A DNA stretch of 64,000 nucleotides from Pseudomonadota bacterium (GCA_039111475.1 JBCCIP010000010.1:62677-126676), one strand, 5' to 3'. Positions 25,628-57,664 are shown, counted from the first letter of the stretch. Notes: generated from the letters alone by a model not told the origin. Numbers and translations: made by a program.

Positions 25628-25643
25628 TCCAATTCTTCCTTAT

Positions 25644-25664
25644 TTATTTCCACTTTGGAAATAA
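25644..25664. promoter_or_regulatory. LysR-type recognition site: perfect inverted repeat TTATTTCC-acttt-GGAAATAA containing T-N11-A.
   Basis: Read directly. It sits 17-37 nt upstream of the lysR start, in the lysR / receptor divergent region. Confidence 0.5.
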
Positions 25665-25758
25665 TACACGCATTTCTATGGGTTTAGAATGGATGCACTT
25701 CCGAGACTCGGAATACCAACACCTTCAATTATTAAAACAATACAGTGGAGAATGCAGC

Positions 25759-34308: not shown

Positions 34309-35271
34309 ATGAGTAAGCTGAAGGGCATTTTCGGAGCAATGTGTACTCCCTTCGACACCAGCGGCGAACACATTGATGACGCGCGCTACACAGAACACAT
34401 TGATGAGCTGATTGAGGCGGGGCTGCACGGGCTTGTTCTTTGCTCCGGTACTGGTGAGTACGCCTATCTGCGCGAAGAAGAAAAAGCACATTTAATAGAG
34501 CTGGGTGCGCGCCACGTGAATGGTCGCGTTCCTACCATTGCGCAAACCACAGCACTCAGTACCGCCGATTGCATTGAGAAATCTCGCCGCGCCCAAGACG
34601 CTGGAGCCAGTGCCGTGATGGTGTTGCCGCCGTATCTGGAAGCACCGGGTGAGCGCGGTATTATCTATCACTACGAAGCGATTGCTAAGGCCATCAGCAT
34701 ACCGGTGGTGATGTACAACGTACCCGAGCAGTCTTGCGTCACTATTACGCCTCAGTTGTATCGCAAGTTACTGGCCATCGAAAACCTGGACTACATCAAA
34801 GACAGCTCAGCTGACTTCACTGCTGTTCAACAACTGATTGAGGTGGGTGGCGGCGTGCTCTGTGGCATTGATGCCCTGGCGCCATATTCTTTAATGGCGG
34901 GTTGCTGTGGAATGATCTGGGGCGCTGCCAACTTCATGCCGCATGAATGCGCGCGGCTATACGATCTGGTGGCTGAAGGCAATCAGTCGGAAGCCTTGGA
35001 ATTGTGGCAAACCATGCTTGCCATTTCGCTGTGGTTTGGCGCCAATCCGCACGGCGTGGACTATTTAACCGGCGTGAAAGCTGCTGCGCGCTTAACCGGG
35101 CGCGATATGGGGCCGTGTCGCAGACCATTGCCGCCGGTACCAGGCCCAGCGCGCCAGGCCATGCGTTTAGCCTTGGCCAAGCTTCCCATTAACGCACCAG
35201 GAAACGAGCGCTTGGTATGGCGTGATTGGGAAGAAGAGCGTGACTGGCTTGTTCAGTCGTATAGAAAGTAA
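34309..35271 (+). CDS. Dihydrodipicolinate synthase/N-acetylneuraminate lyase (DapA) family enzyme. May be a pyrroline-hydroxy-carboxylate deaminase or KDG-aldolase-type enzyme.
   Basis: DapA-family pattern (GLVLCSGTGEYAYL, VMVLPPYL). Confidence 0.8.
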   Translation: MSKLKGIFGAMCTPFDTSGEHIDDARYTEHIDELIEAGLHGLVLCSGTGEYAYLREEEKAHLIELGARHVNGRVPTIAQTTALSTADCIEKSRRAQDAGASAVMVLPPYLEAPGERGIIYHYEAIAKAISIPVVMYNVPEQSCVTITPQLYRKLLAIENLDYIKDSSADFTAVQQLIEVGGGVLCGIDALAPYSLMAGCCGMIWGAANFMPHECARLYDLVAEGNQSEALELWQTMLAISLWFGANPHGVDYLTGVKAAARLTGRDMGPCRRPLPPVPGPARQAMRLALAKLPINAPGNERLVWRDWEEERDWLVQSYRK

Positions 35272-35301
35272 CGCACAGAGATTGACCCGCAGGCAACGAC
35301 T

Positions 35302-36780
35302 ATGAACAACACAACACCTTTGCCCATTAAATTGTCCACACAATGCGTGATAGGTGGCCGCAGCGTGGATGCGCAAAGTGCCGATACTTTCGACACCATC
35401 AACCCGGCTACCGGGGAAGTTCTGGCCAAAATCGCTCGTGGTGATTCTGCTGACGTAGATGCTGCGGTTGCAGCTGCCAGGCGCGCTTTCGACGAAGGTC
35501 CTTGGCCGCGTCTGGCTCCTGCCGAGCGCAAAGTTATTATGCAGCGATTTGCCACTTTGCTTGAAGCCAACCTGGACGAACTAGCGATGATGGAAGCGTT
35601 GGAAGCGGGTAAGCCGATTACCGACTGCATGGAAATTGATTTGCCAGACACCATCAACACGCTGCGTTGGCATGCGGAGGCTGCAGACAAAATTTATGAC
35701 CAGGTATCGCCGTCGTCACCGGGCGTGGTGTCCATGATAGTGCGCGAGCCTATTGGCGTGGTTGGTGTAATTCTCCCCTGGAATTTTCCGCTTATGATGG
35801 CGGCATGGAAACTTGGGCCCATTCTTGCCAGCGGCTGTTGTGCTGTATTGAAACCGGCTGAGCAAACGTCGCTGTCCACTATTCGACTCGCTGAGATCGC
35901 AACGGAAGCAGGTATTCCCGATGGCGTAGTTAATGTGGTGCCAGGCTTTGGCGAAACCGCGGGACGCGCTATTGGCCTGCACAATGATGTGGATTGCGTT
36001 GGCTTTACCGGTTCAACAGAGACCGGCCGACTGTTCTTGAAGTACTCCGCCGATTCAAATTTGAAGCGCGTATTGCTGGAGTGTGGCGGAAAAAACCCGC
36101 TGATTGTAATGGCAGACGCGGAAGACCTGGACAGTGTGGCTGATCACGCCGCCAATTCCATCTTCTGGAACATGGGAGAGAATTGCTCGTCAAATTCTCG
36201 ATTGCTCGTGCACTCATCATTGAAAGATGAATTGATAGAACGACTTTTGGAAAGAACCCACGATTGGACTGTGGGTGACCCACTGGAGGCTGCGACTCGA
36301 ATAGGACCGCTCATTGAACAAGCGCACATGGACAAAGTGCTTGCTGCAATCAACACTGCGAAAGAGCAGGGGGCTACGTTGGTGTGCGGCGGCAACGCAG
36401 TTCGGGTAGACAGTGGTGGGTATTTTGTCGAGCCGACAATATTTGCTGATGTCACACCCGATATGGCATTAGCGCGCGAAGAGGTGTTTGGGCCAGTGTT
36501 GGCCATTCTCAGCTTCGACACACCGGAGCAGGCCATTGCTTTAGCGAATGACTCTGATTACGGGTTAGCCGCGTCAGTATTCACGGCTAATAATAAAACG
36601 GCACACAACGCAGCGCGCGCAATTCGTGCTGGAACCGTTGCGGTTAACTGCTACGGCGAAGGCGATGTGTCCACGCCTTTTGGGGGCTATAAACAGTCGG
36701 GGTTTGGTGGTCGCGACAAGTCACTTGCTGCACATGATCAGTACTGCGAATTGAAAACAATCTGGATCGATTTGTCGTAA
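35302..36780 (+). CDS. NAD(P)+-dependent aldehyde dehydrogenase.
   Basis: ALDH motifs (catalytic-Glu region LECGGKNP, Cys region GENCSSNSRL, GFTGSTETG). Confidence 0.9.
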   Translation: MNNTTPLPIKLSTQCVIGGRSVDAQSADTFDTINPATGEVLAKIARGDSADVDAAVAAARRAFDEGPWPRLAPAERKVIMQRFATLLEANLDELAMMEALEAGKPITDCMEIDLPDTINTLRWHAEAADKIYDQVSPSSPGVVSMIVREPIGVVGVILPWNFPLMMAAWKLGPILASGCCAVLKPAEQTSLSTIRLAEIATEAGIPDGVVNVVPGFGETAGRAIGLHNDVDCVGFTGSTETGRLFLKYSADSNLKRVLLECGGKNPLIVMADAEDLDSVADHAANSIFWNMGENCSSNSRLLVHSSLKDELIERLLERTHDWTVGDPLEAATRIGPLIEQAHMDKVLAAINTAKEQGATLVCGGNAVRVDSGGYFVEPTIFADVTPDMALAREEVFGPVLAILSFDTPEQAIALANDSDYGLAASVFTANNKTAHNAARAIRAGTVAVNCYGEGDVSTPFGGYKQSGFGGRDKSLAAHDQYCELKTIWIDLS

Positions 36781-36784
36781 CACG

Positions 36785-38101
36785 ATGAAACTGTCGATAC
36801 TTCCGCATAACGATAACAATAACGGTTGGCTGCGAATTCTGCCCGAGCTACCCTTGGCCAATGTGTTACGAGGCGAGCATTCTTTTGACGTAGCTATTGT
36901 CGGAGCAGGGTTTACTGGCTTGGCCGCCGCTCGCAGGCTGGGCGAGTTATGTCCAGATGAGCGCATCGCCCTGATTGACGCTGGAAGAATTGGCAACAAC
37001 GCCGCCGGTCGATGTTCGGGGTTTGCTATTGATCAGGCACACAATATTCGCGCGAAAAGCTTTGCTGATGAGCTGGCGAACGAACGATTTCAGCTGCAAC
37101 TCAATAGGCACGGTCAACAAGCGTTGCGTGATGCTGTTGAGCAACACGCCATTGATTGTGATTGGCAAGAAGCGGGCAAGATTCACGGCGCTGGTACTGT
37201 GAAAGGTCAGCAGCTGCTGCGTGATTTAAGCAAGAACATTGAAGCGCTGGGAAATTCCTGTGAGTTTTATGATGCCGAGAAAATGCAGAGTGTCACTGGC
37301 CTGAGATTTTATCGTGAGGGCTTGTATACGCCTGGTACACAGCAAATGCAACCAGCCGCGCTGGTGCGAGGCTTGGCAAAGACCTTACCTGAAAACGTTG
37401 CCGTGTATGAAGATAGCTTGATTACCGATGTGGAATACGGTGATTCACATCGCTTGATCAGTTCAGATGGTGAATTGCAGGCGAACACTCTGGTGCTGGC
37501 AAATAACAGTTTTGCAGCGGCGTTTGGCTTTTATGAAAAACATCTGATACCGCTGCCCACGTTTGCCAGCATGACGCGTGAACTAACAGCTTCTGAATTA
37601 GATACTTTGGGTGGTGAACAAAGCTGGGGCATTGTGCCGGCGCACCCTTTCGGGTCAACGGTGAGAAGGTTAAACAGCAATCGCTTATTGGTTCGCAATA
37701 TCTACGCCTACTCGCATAAGCACAACCCCACCGAGTCGCAGCGGCAGTGGGCCAGAGGAAAACACATTAAGTCATTCAAAGATCGTTTTCCCATGTTGGA
37801 TAAGGTGGAGTTTGAATACAGTTGGGGCGGTACATTGTGTTTGTCCGATAACGGTAAGCCGGTCTTTGGTGAAGTAGCACCCAGAGTTTTTGCCTCACTC
37901 TGCCACCAGGGTGTTGGTATTGCCAGAGGCACCAGTTGTGGAAAGCTCATTGCCGAAGAAGTGGCAGGCGAAGAGTCTGATCTTCTGAGTGCAATGCGTG
38001 CAGAGGGCAGACCGAACAAGAGTTTTCCTAGCTGGATGATGCGCATAGGTGCGCCGCTGAATCTTGCCAATCGACGCCGAATGGCCGGCGGGGAGTTGTA
38101 G
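36785..38101 (+). CDS. FAD-dependent oxidoreductase of the DAO family (D-amino-acid / sarcosine / N-methyl-amino-acid oxidase-like).
   Basis: N-terminal GxGxxG dinucleotide fold (VAIVGAGFTGLAAA) and a length of about 438 aa. Confidence 0.8.
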   Translation: MKLSILPHNDNNNGWLRILPELPLANVLRGEHSFDVAIVGAGFTGLAAARRLGELCPDERIALIDAGRIGNNAAGRCSGFAIDQAHNIRAKSFADELANERFQLQLNRHGQQALRDAVEQHAIDCDWQEAGKIHGAGTVKGQQLLRDLSKNIEALGNSCEFYDAEKMQSVTGLRFYREGLYTPGTQQMQPAALVRGLAKTLPENVAVYEDSLITDVEYGDSHRLISSDGELQANTLVLANNSFAAAFGFYEKHLIPLPTFASMTRELTASELDTLGGEQSWGIVPAHPFGSTVRRLNSNRLLVRNIYAYSHKHNPTESQRQWARGKHIKSFKDRFPMLDKVEFEYSWGGTLCLSDNGKPVFGEVAPRVFASLCHQGVGIARGTSCGKLIAEEVAGEESDLLSAMRAEGRPNKSFPSWMMRIGAPLNLANRRRMAGGEL

Positions 38102-38102
38102 C

Positions 38103-38870
38103 ATGGCAACGTTGGCATTGTCTGATAAAACGGTAGTAATCACCGGTGCAACGTCCGGTATTGGCGCTGCAACCGCACGCGTGATGGCAGCTCAAGGCGC
38201 GCGTTTGCTGCTACTTGGTCGAAATGCAGAGCGCGCTAAGCGTGTGCAAAAAACCGTTGTTGACGAGGGTGGTGTTGCGGAAACCTTCATTGGAGATGTG
38301 AGCGAATCAACGACTGCGGAGGCAGCGGTTAAGCAAGCGCTGCAGAGTTTTGGCCATCTAAATGCGTTGGTAAACGCAGCCGGTGTCATTTATCGAGGCA
38401 ATGCCGTACAGACCAGCGACCAGCAATGGCGCGACAGTATGTCTGCCAATGTGGATGGCAGTTTTTTCATGTCTCGTGCTGCGGTGAGCGCAATGAAGCA
38501 TGGCGGCAGTATCGTCAATATTGCCTCTACCTGCGGCTTGGTCGGGGCCAAAGATCTTACCGCGTACTGCGTCAGCAAGGGAGCGATTGTGCAACTCACG
38601 CGCGCAATGGCGCTGGATCACGCTGATGAAAACATTCGAGTGAACTCAGTTTGCCCGGGGGCAATTGACACGCCCATGTTGGTATCAGGTCACGAGCGCA
38701 GCGGTGCTTCCGCCGAGCAAGTACTAGCAAACAATTTAGCGGAGATTCCTCAGGGGCGCATACCTGGCCCGGAAGAGGTTGCCGAATTGATTGCGTTTCT
38801 CTGCAGTGATGTCAGTTCTCATATTACCGGCACCAACATACCGATTGATGGCGGGTACACAGCGCAATGA
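38103..38870 (+). CDS. SDR family oxidoreductase.
   Basis: TGATSGIGAATA motif, NAAG, and catalytic YCVSK. The ATG overlaps the upstream stop. Confidence 0.85.
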   Translation: MATLALSDKTVVITGATSGIGAATARVMAAQGARLLLLGRNAERAKRVQKTVVDEGGVAETFIGDVSESTTAEAAVKQALQSFGHLNALVNAAGVIYRGNAVQTSDQQWRDSMSANVDGSFFMSRAAVSAMKHGGSIVNIASTCGLVGAKDLTAYCVSKGAIVQLTRAMALDHADENIRVNSVCPGAIDTPMLVSGHERSGASAEQVLANNLAEIPQGRIPGPEEVAELIAFLCSDVSSHITGTNIPIDGGYTAQ

Positions 38871-39667
38871 GCACGTCTTTACGCAATAAGGTTGCCGTTG
38901 TAACCGGTGGTTCACAGGGCATAGGACGCGGAATTTCTGAGCGTTTAGTGGCTGCGGGGGCCCACGTTGTTGTTGCCGACTTGAAAAAAGCTGATGACTT
39001 TCAGCAATGGCGGAATGCGAGCGACGATCAGGTGAGCTATCTGAAGACCGACGTCACCTCTGGCGAATCGGTACAGTCATTGGCTGAGCAAATCGAGGCG
39101 CAGCAAGGGCGCGTGGATGTACTGGTGAACAATGCAGGCATCATGTTTGAGAAAAGTCTCGAAGAGCAAACAGAAGCCGACTGGGACTTAATGATGGCCA
39201 TCAACGTTAAAGGCCCTATGTTGATGAGCAAATTTTTGTTGCCGCTGCTGCGCTATGGCGCAGCGAAAAACGGTAGTGCAGCTGTAGTAAATATAGGGTC
39301 TATTGAAGGGTTTGCAGTTAACCCCAAGCACACGGCTTACAGCGCGTCCAAAGGCGCGGTACACGGGTTTACAGCGGCACTTGCAGTGGATCTCGGCTTG
39401 GACAAAATCCGCGTTAACGCGATAGCGCCTGGTTGGATCGATACCGACTTAAATCGAGCCTATGTCGAATCGGTTGGCGATGTTGAGCTGGCCAAACAAG
39501 AGTTGGCGAAATTACACCCTATGGGTTCTATTGGCGAACCCTCAGATGTTGGCGATGTTGTTGTATGGCTTGCCAGCGATGAATCGCGTTTCGTGAATGG
39601 GCAGGTCATTACTGTTGATGGCGCGCGCACCAGGAAACTGTCCTTACCTCCTATTTTTCAAACTTAA
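38867..39667 (+). CDS. SDR family oxidoreductase.
   Basis: TGGSQGIGRGIS motif, NNAG, and catalytic YSASK. The start overlaps the upstream stop. Confidence 0.85.
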   Translation: MSTSLRNKVAVVTGGSQGIGRGISERLVAAGAHVVVADLKKADDFQQWRNASDDQVSYLKTDVTSGESVQSLAEQIEAQQGRVDVLVNNAGIMFEKSLEEQTEADWDLMMAINVKGPMLMSKFLLPLLRYGAAKNGSAAVVNIGSIEGFAVNPKHTAYSASKGAVHGFTAALAVDLGLDKIRVNAIAPGWIDTDLNRAYVESVGDVELAKQELAKLHPMGSIGEPSDVGDVVVWLASDESRFVNGQVITVDGARTRKLSLPPIFQT

Positions 39668-39692
39668 CCTTCCAACCTAAAAGGCATCCACT

Positions 39693-41237
39693 ATGAGTGA
39701 AGCGGCGATATCCGGTAGCTCCCAGGGCAGAAGAGGTCGCTCGGCACGTCGCAACGCGCGTCTGGCAACCAGTTTTGATTCACTCCCTGCGTTGGAGAGA
39801 GGGCTGCCGTATCTGGATTTGATGACACCTGCCCAACTCGAGAAAATGCACGATGCGACCATGCGCATACTTGAGAATAAGGGAATAGAGTTTCGAGACG
39901 ACGAATCGGCCGAGCTTTGGAGAGCAGCAGGAGCAACAGTCAACGGCCATCATATTCGCATTCCCCGTGAATTGCTGATGCAGTTAATCAGTACGGTTCC
40001 TAGCAGCTACACCATGCACGCTCGTAACCCGGAGCGTACCGTGAAGTTAGGCGACGGTCATACCTGCTTCGTGCCGGCGTATGGTTCGCCCATGATCATA
40101 GACATGGACGGAAAACGCCGAAACGCCACGCTGGAAGACTTCAACAATTTTGCGAAGCTTGCTTATATGGCACCTGCCATGCACATGACGGGCGGAGTAT
40201 TGGTAGAGCCCATGGATGTGCCGGTACCCAAACGTCATTTGCACATGATGTACAGTTTGTTGAAGTATTCTGACAAGCCGTTTATGGGCATGGTGCTCGG
40301 TCGCGACAAAGCCATCGACAGTATGGAAATGGTTAAGCTTGTATTCGGTGAAGAGTTCCTTGAAACACATACGGTAATGACATCACTGGCTAATGGCAAT
40401 TCGCCGCTAGTGTGGGACGAAACCATGCTGGATGCCGCGAAAGTCTATGCACGCCACAATCAGGCGATGTTGTTTTCACCGTTCGCGTTGTGCGGCGCAA
40501 GCACGCCTGCCAGTGTTGTTGGCACCATGGCGCAGATAAGTGCTGAGGCCTTGGCTGGCGTGGCATTTTCGCAGCTGTGCAGAAAGGGCGCACCGGCTGT
40601 TTACGGACAATGGTTGGCAACAGTGTCAATGCAAAGTGGGGCACCCATGGCCGGCACACCCGAAATTTGCCACATTAACATGTTAATGGGGCAGTTGGCC
40701 CGGTTTTACAAACTGCCCATGCGCTGCAGCGGTATGTGCACCAGTTCTAAAGTGGTAGATACACAGGCTGGCTATGAAGCTGGTAGGAATATGTACGGTG
40801 TTTTGATGTCGGGGGCGAACTTTGTTTTGTCTACCGCAGGTTATATGGAGGGGGCCATGGCACAGAGCTACGCCAAATACGCGATTGACATCGAGCAGAT
40901 GGAGTTGTTTTATCGCCTGGGGAAAGGCCCAGATTTCGACGGGCTTGGTGGTGCGTTAGACGCCATTGATGACGTAGAAATTGGGCATCACTATTTGGGC
41001 AGTGCGCACACGCTTGAGAATTTCCAAACCGCATTTTCCATGCCGAATTTGATGGACCACAACAGTTACGAGCAGTGGGCGGCCGAAGGGGGTAAAGACG
41101 CGAACCAGCGCGGCATAGAGAAGATCAAAAAGATGCTTGGCGATTATCAAGAACCTGCGCTTGATTCGGCTGTTGATGACGCCTTATTGGAATTTATTGC
41201 AAGGCGTGAAGCTGAGATTGGCGATCGAACGCTCTAG
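39693..41237 (+). CDS. MttB-superfamily (trimethylamine methyltransferase-like) corrinoid-dependent methyltransferase of the non-pyrrolysine type. Candidate betaine or quaternary-amine demethylase.
   Basis: About 514 aa, an N-terminal Arg-rich region (RRGRSARRNARL) and overall MttB/MtgB-like sequence character. There is no in-frame amber codon. Confidence 0.75.
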   Translation: MSEAAISGSSQGRRGRSARRNARLATSFDSLPALERGLPYLDLMTPAQLEKMHDATMRILENKGIEFRDDESAELWRAAGATVNGHHIRIPRELLMQLISTVPSSYTMHARNPERTVKLGDGHTCFVPAYGSPMIIDMDGKRRNATLEDFNNFAKLAYMAPAMHMTGGVLVEPMDVPVPKRHLHMMYSLLKYSDKPFMGMVLGRDKAIDSMEMVKLVFGEEFLETHTVMTSLANGNSPLVWDETMLDAAKVYARHNQAMLFSPFALCGASTPASVVGTMAQISAEALAGVAFSQLCRKGAPAVYGQWLATVSMQSGAPMAGTPEICHINMLMGQLARFYKLPMRCSGMCTSSKVVDTQAGYEAGRNMYGVLMSGANFVLSTAGYMEGAMAQSYAKYAIDIEQMELFYRLGKGPDFDGLGGALDAIDDVEIGHHYLGSAHTLENFQTAFSMPNLMDHNSYEQWAAEGGKDANQRGIEKIKKMLGDYQEPALDSAVDDALLEFIARREAEIGDRTL

Positions 41238-42305: not shown

Positions 42306-42713
42306 TCATTCGGCAACGTGCAAACTCACGCTGGTTGCACCGCCCATGCGTGCATAATCCAGCACGGGTACAAAAACAGAGGTTGGCGTTGTTTGCTCTG
42401 TACTGACCACAACAGACCGCGCTGGGTCCTGAGCGAGTAGTTGCTCTACATTGGAGCGCACAGACAACTTATCGATGCGTCTTTTCGCCAACCAAATTTC
42501 GCCACTTGCCGTGATGTTGAGCACAATCGGTACAGCGTCAGTGCTACTGGCAGGGCCATATTCCGGGCGTTGCACGTCCAGGCCCTTTTCCATCACGAAT
42601 GTTGCGGTCACCACAAAGAAGATCAGCATGATAAACACCACATCCAGCATGGGAGTGAGTTCAATATCATCGCCGTCATCAACGAGACGTTTTGAGGCAA
42701 TTCGACTGCTCAT
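42306..42713 (-). CDS. exbD: ExbD/TolR family biopolymer transport protein.
   Basis: Conserved N-terminus (IELTPMLDVVFIMLIFFVV), a single TM helix and a size of about 135 aa. Confidence 0.85.
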   Translation of the reverse strand: MSSRIASKRLVDDGDDIELTPMLDVVFIMLIFFVVTATFVMEKGLDVQRPEYGPASSTDAVPIVLNITASGEIWLAKRRIDKLSVRSNVEQLLAQDPARSVVVSTEQTTPTSVFVPVLDYARMGGATSVSLHVAE

Positions 42714-42717
42714 AGAT

Positions 42718-43341
42718 TCACTCCGCTATCTGAAATCGAACACGTGTGGTTACGCCGGCTTTACGAACGGCTTCGCCATTATCAGCAATTTGTGGTCGGT
42801 ACTTCCATTTTTGTACAGCGCGCACTGCGGCGCGGTCAAAAACATTGGCAGGCTCTGCGCCGATTACGCGCACATCTTCGGTAGCACCTGTTACGTCAAT
42901 GGTGAACATCACGTCAACGTAACCGCTAAGGCCTCTTCGTATCGCGATTCCAGGGTAAATAGGTTGTGAGCGAAGGTAAGGGATGGGTTCGCCAGGGGGG
43001 AGGGCCGTCAATGTTGGCCCAGCAGCAGTGGGGTCAACGGGCGGAATGAGAATTGCTTCGGCAGTAGGGCCAACGGCGAATTCCCTTGGTGCTGGTGGCG
43101 CAGTGGGTGGTGCTGCAACTGGCTCTGGCGGTAGCACCTCATCAATTTGAGTTTCTATCACTGTATCATCCGTCATTACAACGGTCGGCATAGGTCGGAC
43201 ATCTCGCGGTACGTACTGATAATCATGCCGAATCAGCAGCAACATGAATAAAAGCAGCGCAAACGTCGCCATGGCTGCAAACATGGCCGATGAAGCCGTG
43301 CGGTAAATATGATCAGTACTTAACAATCTAGAGGTGGTCAT
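42718..43341 (-). CDS. tonB: TonB family energy transducer.
   Basis: N-terminal TM anchor, a Pro-rich spacer (PEPVAAPPTAPPAP) and a C-terminal TonB domain (VDVMFTIDVTG...RAVQKWKYRP). Confidence 0.75.
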   Translation of the reverse strand: MTTSRLLSTDHIYRTASSAMFAAMATFALLLFMLLLIRHDYQYVPRDVRPMPTVVMTDDTVIETQIDEVLPPEPVAAPPTAPPAPREFAVGPTAEAILIPPVDPTAAGPTLTALPPGEPIPYLRSQPIYPGIAIRRGLSGYVDVMFTIDVTGATEDVRVIGAEPANVFDRAAVRAVQKWKYRPQIADNGEAVRKAGVTTRVRFQIAE

Positions 43342-44887
43342 AGCGAACTCCTTGGGCGATTAGAACTTCTGATGAATTATGTTCAGGATTTTCTTCGGGT
43401 GTTGCATTTTGATCGGTATCAGTAAGGCGAAACACATAGCGATTCTCCACGTCTTGCACCTTCACCGCCGTGCCGTTTACCTGGTGCGGCGCATATCGTG
43501 ATTTCCGGATGGCGTTTAGTGCGGCGCGATCAAATATTCGGCCTGGTTTAGAGTGAACCACTCTGGCGTTGGCTACGGTTCCATCAGTCTGTATGTCGAA
43601 TAACACATCGACAAAACCCTCAATGTTGCGGCTTATCGCTCTTAATGGATAAATGGGCATTACAGTAACCGTGGGCATAAAGCCACTGCGACTAATAGTG
43701 GGTGTGGTAGCTGCCGTTAGCTGGCCAGCTAAAATGGCAGGCTCCGGGCCCTGTACTACAACCCTATGCGCAACCGGGCGGGCTGCGGGCTCTGGTAGCC
43801 ACTGCATGCTTCGCGCAGGCGGGTGCGGGAAAGGTCTACTGGGCTCGCCAATTGCTGGCATAGGTGGGAGTTCGTAAATCACAGGCATATACGGCGATGC
43901 GCTCAGACCCATGTTGTCTGGCAATCCTTTTAACTCTGTAGGCTGAACAATTGGCACGGCTCGCAGCACAGTAAAAGGAAGCAGCAATAAAAGAAAAAAG
44001 ACCACGCTTTCAGTGAGACCGAAGCCGTCGTAATAATGTCTTGGTGTTCTTTGTGTTAAGGCGTGAACTCGGTCGGCAAGGCCAGGTCCAAGCATTGCTG
44101 CCCAGAGAGGCATTTTGGTTTTGTGTTCTATTTTGCCCTGTTGTCTGGCGTAGCCTAGCAATACGCCTGCGTAACTCGGTGCCTGTGTACCCGCTAACAC
44201 CACTTCATCGTCTGCTGCAATTTCTGCCTGGTTGCGAAGACCGCGTGCACAAGCATGGACAAGTGGGTTGAACCAGAAAAATGCAACAATCAGTCTAGTG
44301 ATTAACTGGATGACCCAGTCGTGCCGACGAATATGTGCCAATTCGTGCTGCAACGCAGCGTTGATAACGTCGCTCGATTGCGTGAGGAATTCACGCGGTA
44401 AAATAACTTTCGCTGATAATGCCCCGATTGTTATTGGACAGCGCAGGTCGTTCAGCAGCCAAAAACTTATTTTCTGATTGCCTGCAGAAAGCTGTCGCTG
44501 AACTGCAAGCGGCAACGCCGCAACGTTGAATTCAGTGGCATATTTTAACTGACGCCGTAATGCAGCGTAGTCCAGCAAAATCCTTAGCAGACCAACCAAA
44601 ACTCCAACGACATAAATACTGCCTATAACTAGCGCCATATTCGAAGTGACTGGTAACCAACGAGCGGCCGGATCCGGTACCAGTTCTGAAGTAGTCGGCA
44701 GTACCTGAAGCGCTAACTTCGGTGCCATTTCAAGCATGGGCAGTATTAACAGCACTAGCAGCGCAGCGGCCAGCTTGTTGTGCTTAACAGCAGCGGTGTT
44801 GCGCGTGGACCGTTGAACAAACAACAATACCAAGGCCAGAAGCACCGAGCCTTTTACTATTGTATTTAATGCGATATCAAACAGCAT
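43328..44887 (-). CDS. BlaR1/MecR1-like M56 family membrane metalloprotease fused to a C-terminal TonB-like domain.
   Basis: Polytopic N-terminus, zinc motif HELAHIRRHDW (HExxH), a Pro-rich linker, and a C-terminal TonB_C-like domain (VDVLFDIQTDG...NAIRKSRYAP). Confidence 0.8.
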   Translation of the reverse strand: MLFDIALNTIVKGSVLLALVLLFVQRSTRNTAAVKHNKLAAALLVLLILPMLEMAPKLALQVLPTTSELVPDPAARWLPVTSNMALVIGSIYVVGVLVGLLRILLDYAALRRQLKYATEFNVAALPLAVQRQLSAGNQKISFWLLNDLRCPITIGALSAKVILPREFLTQSSDVINAALQHELAHIRRHDWVIQLITRLIVAFFWFNPLVHACARGLRNQAEIAADDEVVLAGTQAPSYAGVLLGYARQQGKIEHKTKMPLWAAMLGPGLADRVHALTQRTPRHYYDGFGLTESVVFFLLLLLPFTVLRAVPIVQPTELKGLPDNMGLSASPYMPVIYELPPMPAIGEPSRPFPHPPARSMQWLPEPAARPVAHRVVVQGPEPAILAGQLTAATTPTISRSGFMPTVTVMPIYPLRAISRNIEGFVDVLFDIQTDGTVANARVVHSKPGRIFDRAALNAIRKSRYAPHQVNGTAVKVQDVENRYVFRLTDTDQNATPEENPEHNSSEVLIAQGVRYDHL

Positions 44888-44900
44888 ATGCGTCTCAATC

Positions 44901-45293
44901 TTACTTTTTGTTTTTGCGAGCTTGTTTTATCTTCTGTTCGAGTGCTTTTAACTCATCGTCGCTCATTTCGTCTGAATGATTGTCGATAAACGCAGTGGCC
45001 GCTCTGAGCGGTGAACCTGAAAAAAACGTGCCCACCAACCGCCTTATGGCGCTCACGCTGGCATTGTCTTTTTCCAGAATAGGCATATAGATGTAACGCG
45101 CGCCTTGCTCGGTATGAGTGATGTGGCCAGCCTCTTCAAGCCGGGCCAGCATCGCTCGTACAGCAGAGTAACCAGGGGGGTTGGGAATATGCTCCTGTAC
45201 GGTCTTTGCGTCTGCACGCTCAAGGCGATACAAGGCATCCATTATTTGCCGCTGTCGGCGACTTAGGTGGGTATGTGGATCATTGCTGGGCAT
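44901..45293 (-). CDS. BlaI/MecI/CopY family transcriptional repressor.
   Basis: Size of about 130 aa. Winged-helix N-terminus with the RRQRQIMDALYRLERADAKTVQE pattern typical of the family. Confidence 0.85.
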   Translation of the reverse strand: MPSNDPHTHLSRRQRQIMDALYRLERADAKTVQEHIPNPPGYSAVRAMLARLEEAGHITHTEQGARYIYMPILEKDNASVSAIRRLVGTFFSGSPLRAATAFIDNHSDEMSDDELKALEQKIKQARKNKK

Positions 45294-45329
45294 GGTTTGA
45301 CTCTCGCAGCGCTGTGGGTTTTCTAGGTG

Positions 45330-45365
45330 TGCTACTTTTATAGCATTATGCTACAAAAATAGCAC
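45330..45365. promoter_or_regulatory. Tandem dyad operator GCTACTTTTATAGC-atta-GCTACAAAAATAGC. The whole 35-bp element is near-palindromic. Candidate BlaI-family repressor binding site.
   Basis: Read directly. It lies 37-72 nt upstream of the blaI-like start, in the divergent promoter region. Confidence 0.45.
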
Positions 45366-45569
45366 CTTTGTGGATTGAATCAACCACTTTCTTACATCAA
45401 GATGAGATAAGCGCTTGGTTTTTATAGAACGGAACGTTATAGAGTTGCTGCTAAGAACACCGAGTACCTGTGCATGCCCGGTAACTGTGGGTATGGCTAA
45501 ATAGTCACTGCATAAAGTGCAGCACTCGCGTTATATTAGCAACCGTTAAGAACTACTCGGAAATAAACC

Positions 45570-46976
45570 ATGCTTGCCACTGAAACCACAAGTTCAGTTA
45601 ATTTCTTTCTCGATGGGAATTTCGCACCTGTTGTTGATGAGCGCGATGCAGATGAAATGGAGGTGCGCGGCCGCATTCCTAAAGACCTGGCGGGGCATTT
45701 CTTGCGGATTGGTCCAAACCCATTGCACATTTTCAGCGAGGAGGCATATCACACCTTCGACGGCGATGGCATGATTCACGCGATTGAGTTTAATGATGGC
45801 GCTGCCCATTATCGAAATCGGTTCGTACAAACGGACGGATTTAAGGTAGAGCAGAAGTTGGGTCACTGGGTGTACAAGGGGATGCTTTCAATGATGGACC
45901 CCACGCCTGCACCCATTCCTGAAGGCGCTCCCGCTGAAAAAAACCGCGCAAATACTGCATTGGCCTATCACAACAATACCTTGTATGCCTTGCACGAGGC
46001 CTCACGCCCGACTGTTATTCGCTTACCTGGATTGGAAACAGAAGGCGAAACAGATTTTAACGGCAAGTTGCAACATCCGTTTACTGCACATCCCAAAGTG
46101 GATCGCAAGAGCGGAGATATGCTGAGCTTCGGTTATGGATTTGAGCCGCCTTTTGTGCACTACTCGGTTATAGATGGTAATGGAGACCTGGTTCATTCAA
46201 CGCCTATCACTATTGAAAAGCCAGTGTTCATGCATGATTTTGCGGCCACTGCGAACTACACATTGGTTCTTGATTTTCCGATCACGCTGGACATTGAGCG
46301 GGCGATGGCTGGTGGCCCTGCACTTGATTTTGAGCCAGAGCATGGGTCAAGAATTGGCGTGGTCCCTCGTTATGGTTCTGACAAAGATGTGCGCTGGTTT
46401 GAGGTGGAAACCTGTTCGGTAATTCATACCGCGAATGCATGGGATGAGGAAGACTGCATTGTTCTGCAAGCGTCAAGAGCTGAAACAACCGATATTGCTG
46501 GCGCAGGTCTGGATGCAGAAAACCTGGAGGATACTCAAGGGCAGCTCTATGAATGGCGCCTTGATTTAAACGCCGGCACTGTTACGGAGCGTATGCTCAG
46601 CGAAGTACATTGTGATTTCTTGCGAGTGAATGACGAGTATGCTTGTCACAAAACTCGTTATATTTACGGCGGAGTATTTAATTCAGAGCGCGCATTCACG
46701 TTCGACGGACTGATGAAATACGACAACGACACCCACATAATCAGCACCTATGACTACGGCCACCAACGCTATGGCGGTGAGGCCGTGTTTGCACCAAAAA
46801 TTGGCGCCGTTGCTGAAGACGACGGTTACCTGATTTGCTTTGTGCACGATGAATCACTAAACCAGAGTGAATGCTTGATTTTGAATGCGCAAGATATAGC
46901 GGGCGGGCCGATAGCAACCCTGTTGATGCCTTACCGTGTGCCGTACGGTTTTCACGCCGGCTGGGTGAGCTCTTAG
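45570..46976 (+). CDS. Carotenoid cleavage oxygenase family protein (RPE65 / lignostilbene dioxygenase / apocarotenoid oxygenase-like).
   Basis: Length of about 468 aa with conserved His-containing blades (HTFDGDG, HPKVD, FMHDF, HTANAW) and acidic second-shell residues. Confidence 0.8.
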   Translation: MLATETTSSVNFFLDGNFAPVVDERDADEMEVRGRIPKDLAGHFLRIGPNPLHIFSEEAYHTFDGDGMIHAIEFNDGAAHYRNRFVQTDGFKVEQKLGHWVYKGMLSMMDPTPAPIPEGAPAEKNRANTALAYHNNTLYALHEASRPTVIRLPGLETEGETDFNGKLQHPFTAHPKVDRKSGDMLSFGYGFEPPFVHYSVIDGNGDLVHSTPITIEKPVFMHDFAATANYTLVLDFPITLDIERAMAGGPALDFEPEHGSRIGVVPRYGSDKDVRWFEVETCSVIHTANAWDEEDCIVLQASRAETTDIAGAGLDAENLEDTQGQLYEWRLDLNAGTVTERMLSEVHCDFLRVNDEYACHKTRYIYGGVFNSERAFTFDGLMKYDNDTHIISTYDYGHQRYGGEAVFAPKIGAVAEDDGYLICFVHDESLNQSECLILNAQDIAGGPIATLLMPYRVPYGFHAGWVSS

Positions 46977-46981
46977 TGTTT

Positions 46982-48106
46982 TCAGTGTTCCATAGAGCGG
47001 TAATGCGCCATGAAATTCTCCACCATGTTTTGCACGTCGAAGCGTTGAGCGGCGTCTCTCTGCGCTTCGTTACCTATAGTCTTAGCCATTTGCGTATGCA
47101 GCATCAATTGCTCGATATTCTCTGAAAGTTCAAGCGCATTACCGGGGCTGAACATCAAGCCGGTTACATTCTGTTTAACCACTTCGGCATTGCCAGGAAT
47201 GCGGGACACAATTACCGCCAACCCGTTCATCATGGCTTCTACCTAGGTGTTGGATATGCCTTCATCTTCGGACGGTAGAATAAGAAAATCAGAGTGATTC
47301 AATAGGGCATGGATATCAGTGCGTTCGCCAATCATTTGTACATTTGACCGCAAACCCCGACGACCAATTTCTTGTCGAATGTCTTTTTCTTCCGGGCCAG
47401 ACCCGGCGATCAGAAAATGAAAGTCATGATCTTTTTGTTTCAGTATCTCAAGAGCCTGCAAGATCACGGGAACATTCTTCGATTTAACCAAGCGTCCAAC
47501 GAACAGGCCAAGCGGTTTATCCTTGTGCTGAGGGCTACCTTCTATCGGTAAAAGAGACTGATCTTGTTTGACCACGCCGTTGTAGATCGTGGCTAACTTT
47601 GGCGCCAATCCTGGCATTTTTTGCAGCGCATATTCGCTGCCTGAGTGCGAATTTGACACCACTGATTTCGACATATGTGTAATGAAACGTTTCAGCAACC
47701 ACTCAGTTGATGTAAACCACTCATACCTTGCGCGAATAGATGTGTGCAAATTCGTTTTTGGACTGAAGAGGTAAGCAACGCAACACCAAAATTCGGCGGT
47801 AAGCGAAAAACAATGTATATGGTCGAACCGCTCTCGCCAGAGAAATCGGGATATACCCAGTAAGAATAACGGGTCAATCTTGAAGTGCTTTGGAATGTGA
47901 GTTACGCGCACGCCACTGGCATGCAATTCCTCAAGCAAGTAAGAGTGCTTTCGAAAGTACAACAGATGTGGCTCAAATTGCCGCCTGTCTATATTTTTTA
48001 CCAGATTGACAATCTGCCGCTGAGAGCCTCCAACCTCCATCTCATCGCAAACAACGAGTAGTTTTTTCTTTGCGCGCGTGGGCAGCGCATTGTCTACGGA
48101 TTTCAT
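46982..48106 (-). pseudogene. GT4 (GT-B fold, family-1-like) glycosyltransferase interrupted by a single in-frame TAG at 47243-47245.
   Basis: The two adjacent ORFs are in the same frame. The sequence reads ...LPSEDEGISNT-TAG-VEAMMNGLAVIVSRIPGNAEVV, which matches the canonical GT4 PSxxEG...EAM core. The TAG sits where Leu, Val or Ile is normally found. Confidence 0.7.
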
Positions 48107-48664
48107 CAGACTGCGGTCTCAATATTTCAAGGCAACGTTGCTGTGGCAACATAGTGGGCCGTTTGTAAAACTACAGAATACGTCGTCAATAGCCGTGCAA
48201 GCTAGACCGCTCAGCGAAGTGTTATGCAGTTTAACATTTGACCAATCTCTCACGTATTTGTTCAATCTCAACATGATATTCATGAGGCGAAACTACGTGA
48301 GCGATGCTTCAGTGACAACTGCACAGGGACCGGTGGCGATTTATCGATACTCAGCGCATAGGGTGAACGGTCGGGGATACAGTCGCTATTGTTTCGGCTC
48401 GCAGAGTGACGAGAAAATTTACAATTTTATGGGTGGTGCATGCGACTATGTTCTAAAACCAGCAATGCGGCGATTGCCTAAACAGTGGGATTTTTGACGT
48501 CCGTTCATCGAACTAATCTCTAGAGTGAGAGTAAGCGGACGCCTTGCAGACCGGCGCGGGGCTGGCCAGAATTGACGGCTTGTTGCTTAGCCTTAGTTTG
48601 AACGTTTGTCGACGTAGGAGCGCCTATATACTTGGAGTATTACTGCATACTTTAGTGGAAAGCA

Positions 48665-49630
48665 TCATTCGTAAAACTGCGAAAACCATTTTCGATGTTT
48701 TGCTATCGGTCCATCACCATCACAGAGAACCGGGTTCGCCTGATATTTCTTTTCCTGCCAAATCGGTATATCCGCCAAGACCCCTTCGGGATAGGACTGC
48801 AACATGGTTTTGCCCATATCGTCTTCTGCCAGATCGTTGGTAACGGTCATGCTCCAGCGCAGAAGCGTACGGTCTTCTTCCACGGGCGTTGAAACGCTGT
48901 ACAGAAGAAACTCACCCATCACGCCAGGTTTTACACCAACAATATTTTTTGACCACACGCTGACATGTCCCGGCCCATGTGACTCCCTGAACGACATGTA
49001 TTCGGTGCCTTCTTCTACCTCACCAACTGACATTTCTTCGCGGGTTTGAAACGCCTGTGTGGTTTTCTTGATGGGACCGTCAATAATGGATTCAGCCTCC
49101 GTGAAACTTGGCATACCATGCAAGTAGGGAAAATGCGCTGTATCAACATCATTTTCCGAAATTTCTTGTACGCAGGTCGGTAAGTCATGTACCAGAAACT
49201 CGGCAGGAATCCAGCCTTCGGCAGCACCATTGAAAGGAGCCAGTTCGGGCACTTCGAAATACGGTGGCTTTCCCTCGCGATCGTGCCAAGCCATGATCAT
49301 GCCATTCACCTCGCGTACATGAATGCTTTCAATCACTGCTCGCTCAGGTATTTTCTTCGCATACGGAATATGTTCGCATTGGCCATCGCCATTCCACTGC
49401 CAGTGATGAAACGGGCAGCGAAGTGTTTCACCAATTACACAGCCTTGACTAAGCGGAGCGCCGAGATGTGGGCAGTAGTTATCAAGCGCAGCTGCTTTGC
49501 CCGACTCAGTTCTAAATGCAACAAGGTCGCGACCACAAAAGCGCACTTTTTTGACCTCGCCTTTTTGTAACTCGTGGGCGAAGCACAGGCCAAACCAGCC
49601 GTGGGGCAATGGGAAGGGGAATTTACTCAT
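48665..49630 (-). CDS. Rieske [2Fe-2S] non-heme iron oxygenase, small alpha-subunit type (VanA/PDO-like).
   Basis: Rieske ligands CPHLGAPL...CPFHHW and mononuclear-iron motif D-x2-H-x4-H (DTAHFPYLH). Confidence 0.8.
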   Translation of the reverse strand: MSKFPFPLPHGWFGLCFAHELQKGEVKKVRFCGRDLVAFRTESGKAAALDNYCPHLGAPLSQGCVIGETLRCPFHHWQWNGDGQCEHIPYAKKIPERAVIESIHVREVNGMIMAWHDREGKPPYFEVPELAPFNGAAEGWIPAEFLVHDLPTCVQEISENDVDTAHFPYLHGMPSFTEAESIIDGPIKKTTQAFQTREEMSVGEVEEGTEYMSFRESHGPGHVSVWSKNIVGVKPGVMGEFLLYSVSTPVEEDRTLLRWSMTVTNDLAEDDMGKTMLQSYPEGVLADIPIWQEKKYQANPVLCDGDGPIAKHRKWFSQFYE

Positions 49631-49911
49631 AGACAGTAAAACGATGTGGTTGTGGATTCATTTCTCAATAGTACCTTGTTGGCCGTAGGCATGTATTTCA
49701 ATTCGTATATGTGGGCAAGACTTGAGCCAATCCTACGTTGCTAATCAGCGCTGCAAGAAAACAGACATTGAACGCGGCGCCAACGCAGCTCCGCAGTTGC
49801 GACGAACTACACCTTTGCTGCGGTAACTGACATTGCGCGTTGCTTTCGCGGCATTGTAGTGTGCTAGTGCCACGACACAGAGGTACTAGTTCGCAGCTAA
49901 TGTACACGCTA

Positions 49912-50379
49912 ATGATCTCACTACTTATAAATGAAAAGCCGGTAACACTTGAATTGGAGCCCAACATGCCGTTGCTGTGGGCCTTGAGGGAGCACCTCAA
50001 CTTAACCGGGGTAAAGTTTGGCTGCGGAATAGGCCAGTGCGGTTCATGCACAGTGCACGTTAATGGCGTGGCACAACGAAGCTGCGTAACACCTGTGGCA
50101 TCTGTTGCGGGTAAGCGTGTTACCACGATCGAAGGTTTGGCGGCGTCAGAGCAACAATTGCATCCCGTGCAGCAGGCGTGGATGGCCAATGATGTGCCGC
50201 AGTGCGGCTACTGCCAGGCAGGGCAAATAATGGCCGCCGCGCATTTTCTGCAGAATTTTCCGGAACCCACTGATGAAGACATTGACACCCACATGACCAA
50301 TATTTGTCGCTGTGGGACTTACGTGCGCATTCGAAAAGCAATTCATGACGCAGCACAATTAATTGCCAAGGAGTCTTGA
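49912..50379 (+). CDS. (2Fe-2S)-binding small subunit of a xanthine dehydrogenase / aldehyde oxidoreductase-family molybdoenzyme (IorA-like).
   Basis: Two cluster motifs ([11 protein letters not shown] and CGYCQAG...CRCGTY). The start is uncertain (49900 or 49912). Overlaps the large-subunit start. Confidence 0.8.
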
Positions 50380-52652
50380 ATATGTCTTCGTTATCCAGCT
50401 CCCAACTTTCCAGTTCCAGACTGCGCCGCCGGCAATTTCTGATAGCCGGTGCTGGATTGTCGGGCTCGTTTGTTCTGGGGTTGCCGATGCACTTATTGGC
50501 AAAGCCAAGCCAGGACGCGGAACCCGTTGATGCCCATGGAACACTGGGCTTCTTTATCGAAATTGACAGCGAAGGTGTGATTACAATTGGCAGTAATCAG
50601 CCAGAAATTGGACAGGGTGTGAGAACCGCTCTGCCAATGCTGGTTGCCGAAGAGCTGGATGCCGACTGGAAAAACGTACGTGTGACGCAAATGCCGCTGG
50701 GCATTGTCAAAACGGCTGATGGCTTCGCCTGGAAATATGGTGGCCAGGGCGTTGGTGGCAGCACCGGCCTGACCAGCAATTGGGAGTTTATGCGCCAGGT
50801 CGGCGCGCAAGCACGTGCTCAACTGATGTCGGCAGCAGCCCAGCGCTGGAATGTGCCAATACAGGAATGCGGTACTCGCCCAGGTTATGTGATTCACCAA
50901 GGTGGCCAGCGAGAGCTAAGCTATGGTCAACTTGTCGGAACGGCCGCGCGGTTGCGACTACCGGGTGAGACCGCGCCGCTAAAAAAACATCAAGACTATC
51001 GAATTATTGGTAAACCAACGGCCAGCGTTGATACGAAAGACGTTGTAACGGGAACCGCTATCTATGGCATAGACAGTGCTGTCGAAGGAATGCGCTACGC
51101 TGTTGTTGCGCGTTCTCCAGTTTTGAATGGGCGAGTGAAAGCATTTGATGCCAAAGATGCGTTGAAGATTCCAGGTGTTTTGCAGGTCTTTCGATTGGAA
51201 GGCCCTAAGCCAGGCGACCCTTACCGGATTCTGGCGGATGGCGTGGCGGTGGTGGCAACATCAACGTGGACGGCCATGAAAGCCCGGGAGGCATTGCGCA
51301 TTGAGTGGGCTTCAAACCCCAATGCAAACGACAACAGCACCGATTTCTGGCAAGACAATCAGCAGATGTTAAAGGCGAAAGGACAAGTAGTTTTGGAGGA
51401 CGGCGATTTTGATCTAGCCGTGTCGAATGCTGCACGTCGTATGGTTCGCCAATACAAAGTGCCGTTTGTATCTCACGCGCCATTGGAGCCACAGAACTGT
51501 ATTGTTCATGTAAAAGAAAACTCCGCGCACGTGATTGCGCCAACCCAAATGCCCAGCGGCGCATCTCGCGCCGTGAACGCAGTGACTGGCATAGAGCGTG
51601 AACACATTAGTGTTGAGATGACCAAGGTGGGTGGCGGCTTCGGTCGCCGCCTGAGCAATGATTACGTCGCGGAAGCGGCCATGATTTCACAGCAAAGCGG
51701 CCTGCCAATCAAGCTGCAGTGGAGCCGTGAAGACGACATCAAAAATGACTTCTATCGGCCCGCCGGTTTGCACGAAATGCAGGCGGGTTTAGATGCACGT
51801 GGCCGGGTCATTGCCTGGGCGCAGCGACTGGCAAGCGCGAGCAAATATTACCGGCGACCCAACATGCCCGATGAGAATCTTTGGGAAGCAGAACTCTATG
51901 TTGATGACTTCCCAAGAAGGCGAGTTGAGAACGTACGGCTGGAATATTTTCACAACGCTATTGGCCTGCCACGTGGCTCCTGGCGCGCACCAGCGCACAC
52001 AGCCAATGCCTTTGTTGTGCAAAGCTTTATCGATGAAATTGCGCACGCGAGCGGGCAAGATCCACTGCAACTGCAGCTGGATCTGTTAGGCAAAGAGGAG
52101 GATCTGGAGTACTCAAATCATGGCGGCCCGGTATTTAATCCAGGCCGGCTCGCCAAACTTTTGAAGTTTGTTGCCCAGCAAATTGACTATAAGCGGAGCA
52201 GACCGGAAGGCGTTGGTGTAGGACTGGCAAGCCATTTCACCTTTGGTGGCTATGCGGCGCACGCAATAGAAGTGTCGGTAAACAACGCAGGTCGATTGAC
52301 TATTGAGAAAATTGTTGCAGCCATTGATTGCGGGCTGGTGGTTAATCCACAGTCCGTCAGGGCTCAACTGGAAGGCGGCACCATCGATGGCATTAGCACT
52401 GCGTTGGGTCTGGAGATTACTGTCAAGGATGGTCAGGTGCAGCAAAGCAATTTCCATGACTACCCATTAATGCGGATTGCACAAGTGCCTGAACAATTTG
52501 AGACACACATTCTGCCTTATGACGACGTGCCGACAGGCGTGGGAGAAATGGGCATACCGTCTGCAGCCCCTGCGCTTACCAATGCAATCTTTGCGGCCAG
52601 TGGTCAGCGAATTAGAGCGCTACCTATTAAGGATCAGCTGAAAAAGTCTTGA
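50376..52652 (+). CDS. Molybdopterin-binding large subunit of an IorB-like aldehyde oxidoreductase or isoquinoline 1-oxidoreductase, Tat-exported.
   Basis: Twin-arginine signal [14 protein letters not shown], a length of about 758 aa and family-typical sequence character. Confidence 0.85.
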
Positions 52653-53551: not shown

Positions 53552-53567
53552 TTGTTAGGATATGTGC

Positions 53568-54188: not shown

Positions 54189-54223
54189 TTAGATACACAT
54201 ACGCATATCCAAAGGAGAGAGTT

Positions 54224-54937: not shown

Positions 54938-54974
54938 AATCTCGGCAACAATAGGCTAGAGGAGAGGGAGAAAG

Positions 54975-55679: not shown

Positions 55680-55732
55680 CGAGTGCTGGTAGCTCGTTAC
55701 AAACAAAAAGGACACTAACTAAGGAAAATACT

Positions 55733-57643: not shown

Positions 57644-57664
57644 GCCGGCGCGGAGCACAGCTGA

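Follow-up and report, generated by a model that had tools for sequence, protein, structure and literature searches.

A putative BlaI/M56 protease signalling pair with a TonB C-terminal domain, encoded together with TonB and ExbD

What does a BlaR1-like membrane protease respond to when its beta-lactam sensor has been replaced by a TonB C-terminal domain (TonB_C), and what does it control? The question is raised by a 64,000-nucleotide (nt) stretch of DNA from a Pseudomonadota bacterium (GCA_039111475.1, JBCCIP010000010.1:62677-126676), the whole of which we analysed and refer to as the window. An initial annotation, made from the sequence alone, had noticed in it four co-directional genes for a BlaI-type repressor, an M56 zinc protease, TonB and ExbD. 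All four are present, closely packed on the minus strand between 42306 and 45293 in the order blaI-like, M56-TonB_C, tonB, exbD, and their Pfam scores are well above thresholds (Table 1). The blaI and M56 genes are separated by 13 nt, the M56 and tonB genes overlap by 14 nt, and tonB and exbD are 4 nt apart. A perfect Shine-Dalgarno sequence for tonB, AAGGAG (43348-43353), lies within the 3' end of the M56 gene. There is no convincing terminator 3' of exbD, and inside the cluster there are no clear terminator or promoter calls in either direction. We propose that this cassette is an autoregulated proteolytic switch of the BlaI/BlaR type, with TonB_C as its input and TonB and ExbD as its output. 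Our confidence in the circuit is high and in the nature of the signal low; taken as a whole, we consider the proposal evenly balanced between right and wrong.

The second gene had been described as encoding a polytopic M56 zinc protease in which TonB_C replaces the penicillin-binding sensor, and this description is borne out by the combination of PF05569 with PF03544 (E = 3.7e-18) and by structural comparison. In an AlphaFold2 model built on 40 homologues, the membrane/protease module has a predicted local distance difference test score (pLDDT) of 80-94, the linker that follows it is disordered, and the TonB_C domain is confidently modelled. Foldseek matched the N-terminal part of the model to the cryo-electron microscopy structures of Staphylococcus aureus BlaR1 (8exq, 8exr) and the C-terminal part to TonB C-terminal domains, among them TonB bound to the TonB box of BtuB (2gsk_B, TM-score 0.90). 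By sequence, the closest solved structure for the TonB_C domain is the C-terminal domain of Vibrio anguillarum TonB2 (2k9k, E = 1.7e-14). The M56 protein has no match to PF00905 or to beta-lactamases, as would mark a penicillin-binding or class D beta-lactamase-like sensor domain, and it scores 59 bits with the NCBIfam model blaR1_generic, for which the cut-off is 400. The zinc-site motif HELAH occupies residues 181-185 and the glutamate that serves as third ligand is residue 222. Because H181, E182, H185, E222 and D226 are invariant in an alignment of 40 M56-TonB_C homologues, the protease looks active. The protein shares with TonB a proline-rich spacer and a TonB_C fold with a YP motif; it has no single N-terminal anchor of the TonB type (SxxxH), residues 1-310 being a multi-helix BlaR1-like module. 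Its TonB_C domain is 39% identical to that of the cassette TonB, and the two domains are therefore not products of a recent duplication.

The tail that follows the TonB_C domain ends in a motif, SEVLIAQGVRYDHL, that is near-invariant in five orthologues and similar to the TonB boxes of the two TonB-dependent receptors encoded in the window. The tail is disordered in the full-length AlphaFold2 model, and in a model of a fragment residues 506-514 form a beta-strand with a pLDDT of only ~56. At the DNA level the tail is nearly invariant, third codon positions included, and it holds the AAGGAG and start codon of tonB, so translational coupling explains much of its conservation. We make no claim for the tail as a pseudo-TonB-box, since the AlphaFold2 models disagree and the ribosome-binding site and start of tonB lie in the same DNA.

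The repressor and its operator connect these genes to a known mode of regulation. Members of the BlaI/MecI/CopY family have ~120-130 amino acids, with an N-terminal winged helix for DNA binding and dimerisation helices at the C-terminus, and the BlaI-like protein conforms to this pattern. It aligns end to end with MecI (1sd6/1okr), and it is not CopY-like, because its sequence has no C-terminal Cys motif. The DNA upstream of blaI contains a tandem pair of 16-nt palindromes (TGCTAY-N4-RTAGCA), which overlap both candidate promoters, the one read by eye (Table 1) and an alternative from a promoter scan (TCCACA-18-CATAAT). An operator of the form GCTAC-N5-ATAGC had been reported here; the operator is present, but its spacer is N4 (the earlier reading was off by one) and there are two boxes in tandem. 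Their TAC-N4-GTA core is that of the classical BlaI/MecI/CopY box (of the TACAnnTGTA type, often found as two dyads at the repressor's own promoter). Both boxes are identical in the window and in two related contigs (L001 and L085) whose proteins are ~71-85% identical, the 3-nt spacer between the boxes differing by one base in L085. This identity persists in spite of divergence in the intergenic DNA around the boxes and of different neighbours upstream; the candidate -35 reads TTGACT in both relatives. In a set of 85 M56-bearing sequences from many phyla (1.42 Mb), 23 of the 41 matches to the core motif precede a blaI start by no more than 250 nt, frequently in tandem, and across 79 loci the operator motif is enriched in the DNA preceding blaI.

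The initial annotation had looked to the operator as a guide to a wider regulon. Within the window, a search finds the operon's own promoter and nothing else: the two boxes are the only matches at one mismatch or fewer, and the six further sites obtained at two mismatches are degenerate, none of them near a receptor promoter. A regulon inside the window was rejected on these grounds. We consider the operator well supported by the comparison of these genomes, and in the window it points only to its own operon. Conservation in three genomes also extends beyond the operator, over ~65 nt preceding the -35, and two blocks there, CTATAACRTTCYGTTCTAT and CTTATCTCWTCTTGRTGTAA (45386-45440, minus strand), may be bound by a second regulator or act as an UP-like element.

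Table 1. Coordinates of the cassette genes, of the parts of the M56-TonB_C protein and of the promoter region. Positions are those of the window.
Feature	Position	Strand or sequence	Description
blaI-like gene	44901-45293	-	130-amino-acid winged-helix repressor, BlaI/MecI/CopY family; PF03965 E = 2e-20, residues 10-124
M56-TonB_C gene	43328-44887	-	519 amino acids; PF05569 E = 4e-24, residues 32-252; PF03544 E = 3.7e-18, residues 411-487
M56 membrane zinc-protease module	43958-44887	-	residues 1-310; HELAH 44333-44347, Glu222 44222-44224, last transmembrane helix residues 291-307
Pro-rich periplasmic linker	43685-43957	-	residues 311-401; predicted disordered, pLDDT < 50 (AlphaFold2)
TonB C-terminal domain of M56 protein	43421-43684	-	residues 402-489; PF03544
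C-terminal tail	43331-43420	-	30 residues; final 14 (SEVLIAQGVRYDHL) conserved, overlying tonB Shine-Dalgarno and tonB start
tonB paralogue	42718-43341	-	207 amino acids; N-terminal transmembrane helix, Pro-rich spacer, TonB_C PF03544 E = 2.3e-18
exbD paralogue	42306-42713	-	135 amino acids; PF02472 E = 3.8e-22; transmembrane Asp kept (TPMLDVVF)
operator box 1	45349-45364	TGCTATTTTTGTAGCA on minus strand	contains candidate -10 TATTTT (45356-45361)
operator box 2	45330-45345	TGCTATAAAAGTAGCA on minus strand	19 nt start-to-start from box 1
candidate -35 TTGATT	45378-45383	-	16-nt spacer to TATTTT; read by eye

The genes have stayed together in close relatives. Only four protein clusters in a collection of 5.8 billion proteins exceed 70% identity to the M56 protein, and identity drops to 31% for the next relative. 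All four genes, with unchanged overlaps, are found in L001, L084 and L085 ('Pseudomonadales bacterium' metagenome-assembled genome, MAG), and part of the cassette is found in L088. What lies on either side changes. For example, in L001 a gene of 616 amino acids (aa) separates exbD from a DHH-like gene, and L085 has MarR, CopB and multicopper oxidase genes on the exbD side and TetR, GST and HD genes upstream. Comparison of these contigs indicates that the cassette is passed on whole, with variable DNA on either side. The gene next to exbD in the window had been called a DHH phosphoesterase; it is the next gene, but its DHH identity falls below the Pfam cut-offs, and other genes intervene before it in the two relatives in which that side is visible. 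Because the flanks differ between relatives, this gene and the divergent gene for an RPE65-family dioxygenase are neighbours of the cassette, not members of it.

The next-closest relative (L082) has a different arrangement. There, blaI and the M56-TonB_C gene are divergent from a DUF3450 gene, the first gene of a TonB2-type operon, and the DUF3450 protein scores 166 bits against the first gene product of the TonB2-type operon of Cellvibrio. Variant BlaI-type boxes (GGTGTTAT...) are found near both divergent promoters, GGTGTTATTTTTATCGCAC at ~939-957 and GGTGTTATAAAAATAACAG at ~1126-1143. This locus gives a hint, as a second and independent indication, that such sensors control Ton-system genes in Gammaproteobacteria.

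The two genes at the end of the cassette encode part of a Ton system. The cassette TonB is 74-85% identical among its orthologues. It had been called canonical, which is correct for its transmembrane helix, Pro-rich spacer and TonB_C domain but not for the helix sequence, from which the His of SxxxH is missing in all four orthologues (as aligned to Escherichia coli TonB). The nearest named relatives of the cassette ExbD belong to TonB2-type systems, for example 'ExbD2' of Cellvibrio japonicus. The initial annotation had found no ExbB/TolQ/MotA-like gene in the cluster, and we agree. No member of the MotA_ExbB family was found by Pfam among the longest non-nested open reading frames (ORFs) of at least 120 aa in the window. 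Nor was one found in six-frame segments of at least 40 aa from the window and the related cassette contigs L001, L084, L085 and L088, searched with two Pfam-verified MotA_ExbB proteins of C. japonicus (E <= 10); an E. coli ExbB probe gave no matches. Those four contigs likewise have no exbB beside the cassette. The missing exbB is less odd than was first implied, because orphan exbD genes occur in the clade: an exbD that is 54% identical stands entirely alone in another Pseudomonadales MAG. Judging from gene content, the cassette TonB and ExbD would have to join an ExbB (or the TtpC/ExbB of a TonB2-type system) encoded elsewhere.

We suggest that the switch works as follows. By homology, BlaI dimers would repress the four-gene operon by way of the tandem boxes, and the activated M56 protease would cleave BlaI in the cytoplasm and so derepress the operon; cleavage of BlaI by this protease is a reasonable expectation from its homology with known pairs. 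BlaR1 and MecR1, on receiving their signal, cut themselves as well as the repressor that belongs to them. In place of the beta-lactam sensor of BlaR1, the protease would carry a periplasmic TonB_C domain on a long Pro-rich tether. The output, going by gene content, would be the sensor pair itself together with an extra, dedicated TonB and ExbD. Xanthomonas ExbD2 (PMC3551730) provides a precedent for an additional ExbD that serves signalling across the envelope. The most speculative step concerns the signal. We postulate that the tethered TonB_C binds the exposed TonB box of substrate-loaded transporters in the outer membrane, so that the switch would read unmet demand for TonB and raise the supply of TonB and ExbD. 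An exposed TonB box bound by the periplasmic TonB_C is, we infer, the most plausible input, and organic nutrients would be likelier substrates than iron. In its complete form, with the M56-TonB_C protein as a direct sensor of TonB-box occupancy on loaded but unserviced transporters that cleaves BlaI and tunes the supply of TonB and ExbD, the idea is tentative and we would lean against it.

The window contains two TonB-dependent receptors, and the initial annotation had suggested a cell-surface signalling route in which such a transducer is sensed. This suggestion is not supported here: the receptors have neither a signalling extension nor an operator, and no receptor recurs at 12 distant loci. 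Pfam finds in both receptors only Plug and barrel domains, and their TonB boxes (EEVIVTA and EEIVVTA) come directly after the signal-peptide-like N-termini of the likely mature forms. They lie 17-30 kb from the cassette, each beside a regulator of its own (TetR and LysR), and the search of the window placed no operator at either, even at two mismatches. No extracytoplasmic function (ECF) sigma or anti-sigma families turned up among the window ORFs scanned. The blaI promoter has no Fur-like box, the best match (10/19 to the consensus) being at background level. Since the genes surrounding the cassette are catabolic as well, regulation by iron is not indicated. In the second receptor (25540-28080), the start of the mechanically called ORF lies ~73 codons upstream of the correct one, and the signal peptide starts near 25759, as given in the initial annotation.

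More distant members of the family present a simpler picture. Among 80 distant M56 loci taken from genomes, 11 encode M56-TonB_C; none of the 11 has a neighbouring exbD, and free TonB_C ORFs are near only one (L075). In a Pfam census of the 109 neighbours of 12 distant M56-TonB_C genes, Penicillinase_R was the sole recurrent family (9/12). We rejected the idea that M56-TonB_C genes are generally linked to receptor or Ton genes, as phmmer and this census showed only blaI recurring at the 12 loci. Because the distant loci share only blaI, the linkage to tonB and exbD is a clade-specific elaboration. In Acidobacteriota loci L005, L019, L049 and L079 (at ~11.6-13.8 kb in each), the M56-TonB_C gene is immediately followed by a second co-directional ORF of 480-720 aa. 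The architecture itself is already known, having been noted since 2007. According to a 2026 study based on InterPro, M56+TonB_C ranks second in frequency among M56 architectures and exceeds true beta-lactam sensors, and BlaI is a neighbour for 96% of M56 proteins (PMC13492132). A TonB survey of 2007 found M56 extensions on 9/263 TonBs, as relayed in a later paper in which TonB1 and TonB10 of Bacteroides thetaiotaomicron, both with M56+TonB_C, are called uncharacterised (PMC10350073).

Several points weigh against a switch driven by TonB boxes. The scissile bond of BlaI/MecI repressors, N101-F102 in the dimerisation domain, is an Asn-Phe pair in MecI that aligns with Ala-Phe here (LNF against TAF). 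The comparison of loci indicates that tonB and exbD are linked to the protease gene in one small clade only, and that this linkage is not the general logic of the family. The M56 protein has no N-terminal anchor of the TonB type and so, as modelled, probably cannot be energised. In the model, a signal from binding would also have to cross a disordered linker of ~90 residues. No receptor, operator or Fur-like box ties the system to any transporter in the window. Finally, our full-text literature search found no functional study of any M56-TonB_C protein, in agreement with the earlier statement that the architecture is catalogued (PMC13492132, PMC10350073) and not functionally described.

The readings that compete with TonB-box sensing concern mainly the nature of the input. 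We think it rather unlikely that the TonB_C of the M56 protein reads the state of the Ton motor through the periplasmic domain of the co-encoded ExbD, through TonB, or both. On this account, the cycling or stalling of ExbB-ExbD, which depends on the proton motive force, would control the protease, and exbD would be present because it is ExbD, and not ExbB, that makes the specific contacts in the periplasm. ExbD-TonB contacts in the periplasm are established for E. coli. Throughout this clade the sensor is always accompanied by exbD and tonB and never by exbB, and the divergent TonB transmembrane helix without the conserved His suggests a dedicated set of partners. There is also a precedent for an accessory ExbD that acts in signalling and not in transport: ExbD2 of Xanthomonas campestris (tonB-exbB-exbD1-exbD2) is dispensable for bulk transport and required for substrate-induced trans-envelope signalling (PMC3551730). 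The exbD2 gene, however, shares its cluster with exbB and exbD1, and a BlaI/M56 pair has not been described for it. Distant M56-TonB_C systems do without a linked exbD or tonB, which argues that a private ExbD is not generally needed, and a contact between ExbD and this TonB_C is hypothetical.

Two further possibilities take the TonB_C domain in other directions. The M56-TonB_C protein might be mainly a paralogue of TonB that transduces energy or competes for TonB boxes, with the M56 part serving as an anchor or acting on another substrate and BlaI responding to an unrelated cue. Its C-terminal domain and Pro-rich spacer are indeed TonB-like, and the literature has counted such proteins among the homologues of TonB (TonB1 and TonB10 of B. 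thetaiotaomicron, and the 9/263 TonBs as relayed in PMC10350073). This is quite unlikely, given a polytopic BlaR1-like fold that offers no single N-terminal anchor to an ExbB pentamer, a HEXXH...E motif that is invariant in 40 homologues, and a blaI gene that accompanies the protease gene almost universally. We also give little credence to a general sensor of envelope state, in which TonB_C would bind peptidoglycan or some other periplasmic or outer-membrane feature and tension on the tether, or its detachment under envelope stress or altered periplasmic width, would activate the protease. A long, disordered, Pro-rich tether could span the periplasm, and a generic cue would fit the distant members that have no transporter linkage. 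Yet the genes regulated in this clade are specifically tonB and exbD, the neighbour in L082 is a TonB2-type operon, and the domain is closest to the C-terminal domains of TonB2 and TonB proteins active in transport. That the blaI/M56 and tonB/exbD pairs are adjacent by chance and not co-regulated is very improbable: the calls inside the cluster are silent either way, but the 14-nt overlap with its embedded Shine-Dalgarno sequence, the 4-nt gap, and the persistence of the genes together in L001, L084, L085 and partly L088 while both flanks change all speak for a single operon.

The proposed switch can be set beside several known systems. Like BlaI/BlaR1 and MecI/MecR1 of S. aureus, it has a repressor gene followed by an M56 gene, a PF03965 repressor, a BlaR1 fold with HEXXH...E, and tandem palindromic TAC-N4-GTA boxes overlapping its own promoter. 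In contrast to those systems, a TonB_C domain on a ~90-residue Pro-rich tether replaces the penicillin-binding sensor, the Gram-negative host makes the sensor periplasmic, the cargo is tonB and exbD instead of a beta-lactamase or PBP2a, and Ala-Phe stands in place of Asn-Phe. The uncharacterised M56+TonB_C proteins (TonB1 and TonB10 of B. thetaiotaomicron, and those of Xanthomonas and B. fragilis in the 2007 survey) have the same domains, a blaI partner, and the catalytic and YP motifs. They are only ~22-31% identical to the protein described here, and many have an extra CarboxypepD_reg domain or a second TonB_C; linked tonB or exbD genes are found at 0/12 distant loci, and the 30-residue tail is specific to this clade.

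A further relationship is to TonB2-type systems (TtpB/DUF3450, TtpC, ExbB, ExbD, TonB2 and TtpD), known from Vibrio and Cellvibrio. In C. japonicus the operon order is DUF3450, TtpC-like, ExbB, ExbD, TonB, TPR. The cassette ExbD is 47-53% identical to its counterparts, the proteins match in size (135 and ~207-210 aa), the TonB_C of the sensor is nearest to V. anguillarum TonB2, and the sensor pair in L082 abuts such an operon. However, the cassette lacks the DUF3450, TtpC, ExbB and TPR genes, its order is tonB-exbD and not exbD-tonB, and the TonB C-terminal domains are only ~38% identical. A conceptual likeness can also be drawn with FecA/FecR/FecI, since both systems could relay transporter occupancy to transcription by way of proteolysis. 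Here, unlike in the Fec system, the receptors have no N-terminal signalling domain and no ECF/anti-sigma pair is found among the ORFs scanned; an inner-membrane partner would read the TonB box, and a repressor would be destroyed rather than a sigma factor released.

In most genomes the BlaI/M56-TonB_C pair is alone and its targets are not evident; in this Pseudomonadales clade the operon names its output, a private TonB and ExbD. A clean operator and a named output make for a concrete and testable circuit that would connect transporter demand, repressor proteolysis and Ton-motor supply. If TonB boxes are sensed, this would be a third route from the outer membrane to the cytoplasm, besides sigma/anti-sigma pairs and hybrid two-component systems, and one that needs no signalling domain on the receptor. 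The BlaR-like proteins of the second largest class would also gain a function. If sensing of TonB boxes fails, the cassette would still be a compact model for BlaIR signalling that does not involve beta-lactams.

Several other genes in the window deserve mention. Adjoining the cassette, the region 45570-52652 encodes an RPE65/lignostilbene-type dioxygenase, a KshA-like Rieske oxygenase and a two-subunit molybdopterin hydroxylase, a set that suggests a pathway for aromatic or isoprenoid cleavage; the RPE65 and Rieske genes flank the cassette in L001 too. Within this region, a gene for a GT4-family glycosyltransferase (46982-48106, minus strand) has an in-frame TAG (47243-47245) inside the conserved EGxxxxxxEAM motif (EGISNT*VEAMMNG); the gene may have decayed into a pseudogene, or the TAG may reflect a sequencing error or a site of read-through. 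On the other side of the cassette, 34309-41237 encodes a DHDPS-family protein, an aldehyde dehydrogenase, an FAD oxidase (DAO), two short-chain dehydrogenases and an MTTB-family methyltransferase without an in-frame stop. This block is partly syntenic with 15653-21278 of L001 and looks like a pathway for demethylation of quaternary amines or betaines. Lastly, co-directional plus-strand genes at 53562-62884 encode a DUF2170 protein, PspA/IM30, two proteins without a Pfam family (234 and 636 aa) and a 1739-aa protein. The last of these combines DUF3686 ('ATPase involved in DNA repair'), DUF7902 and an AAA domain, and is an unusual giant ATPase linked to PspA.

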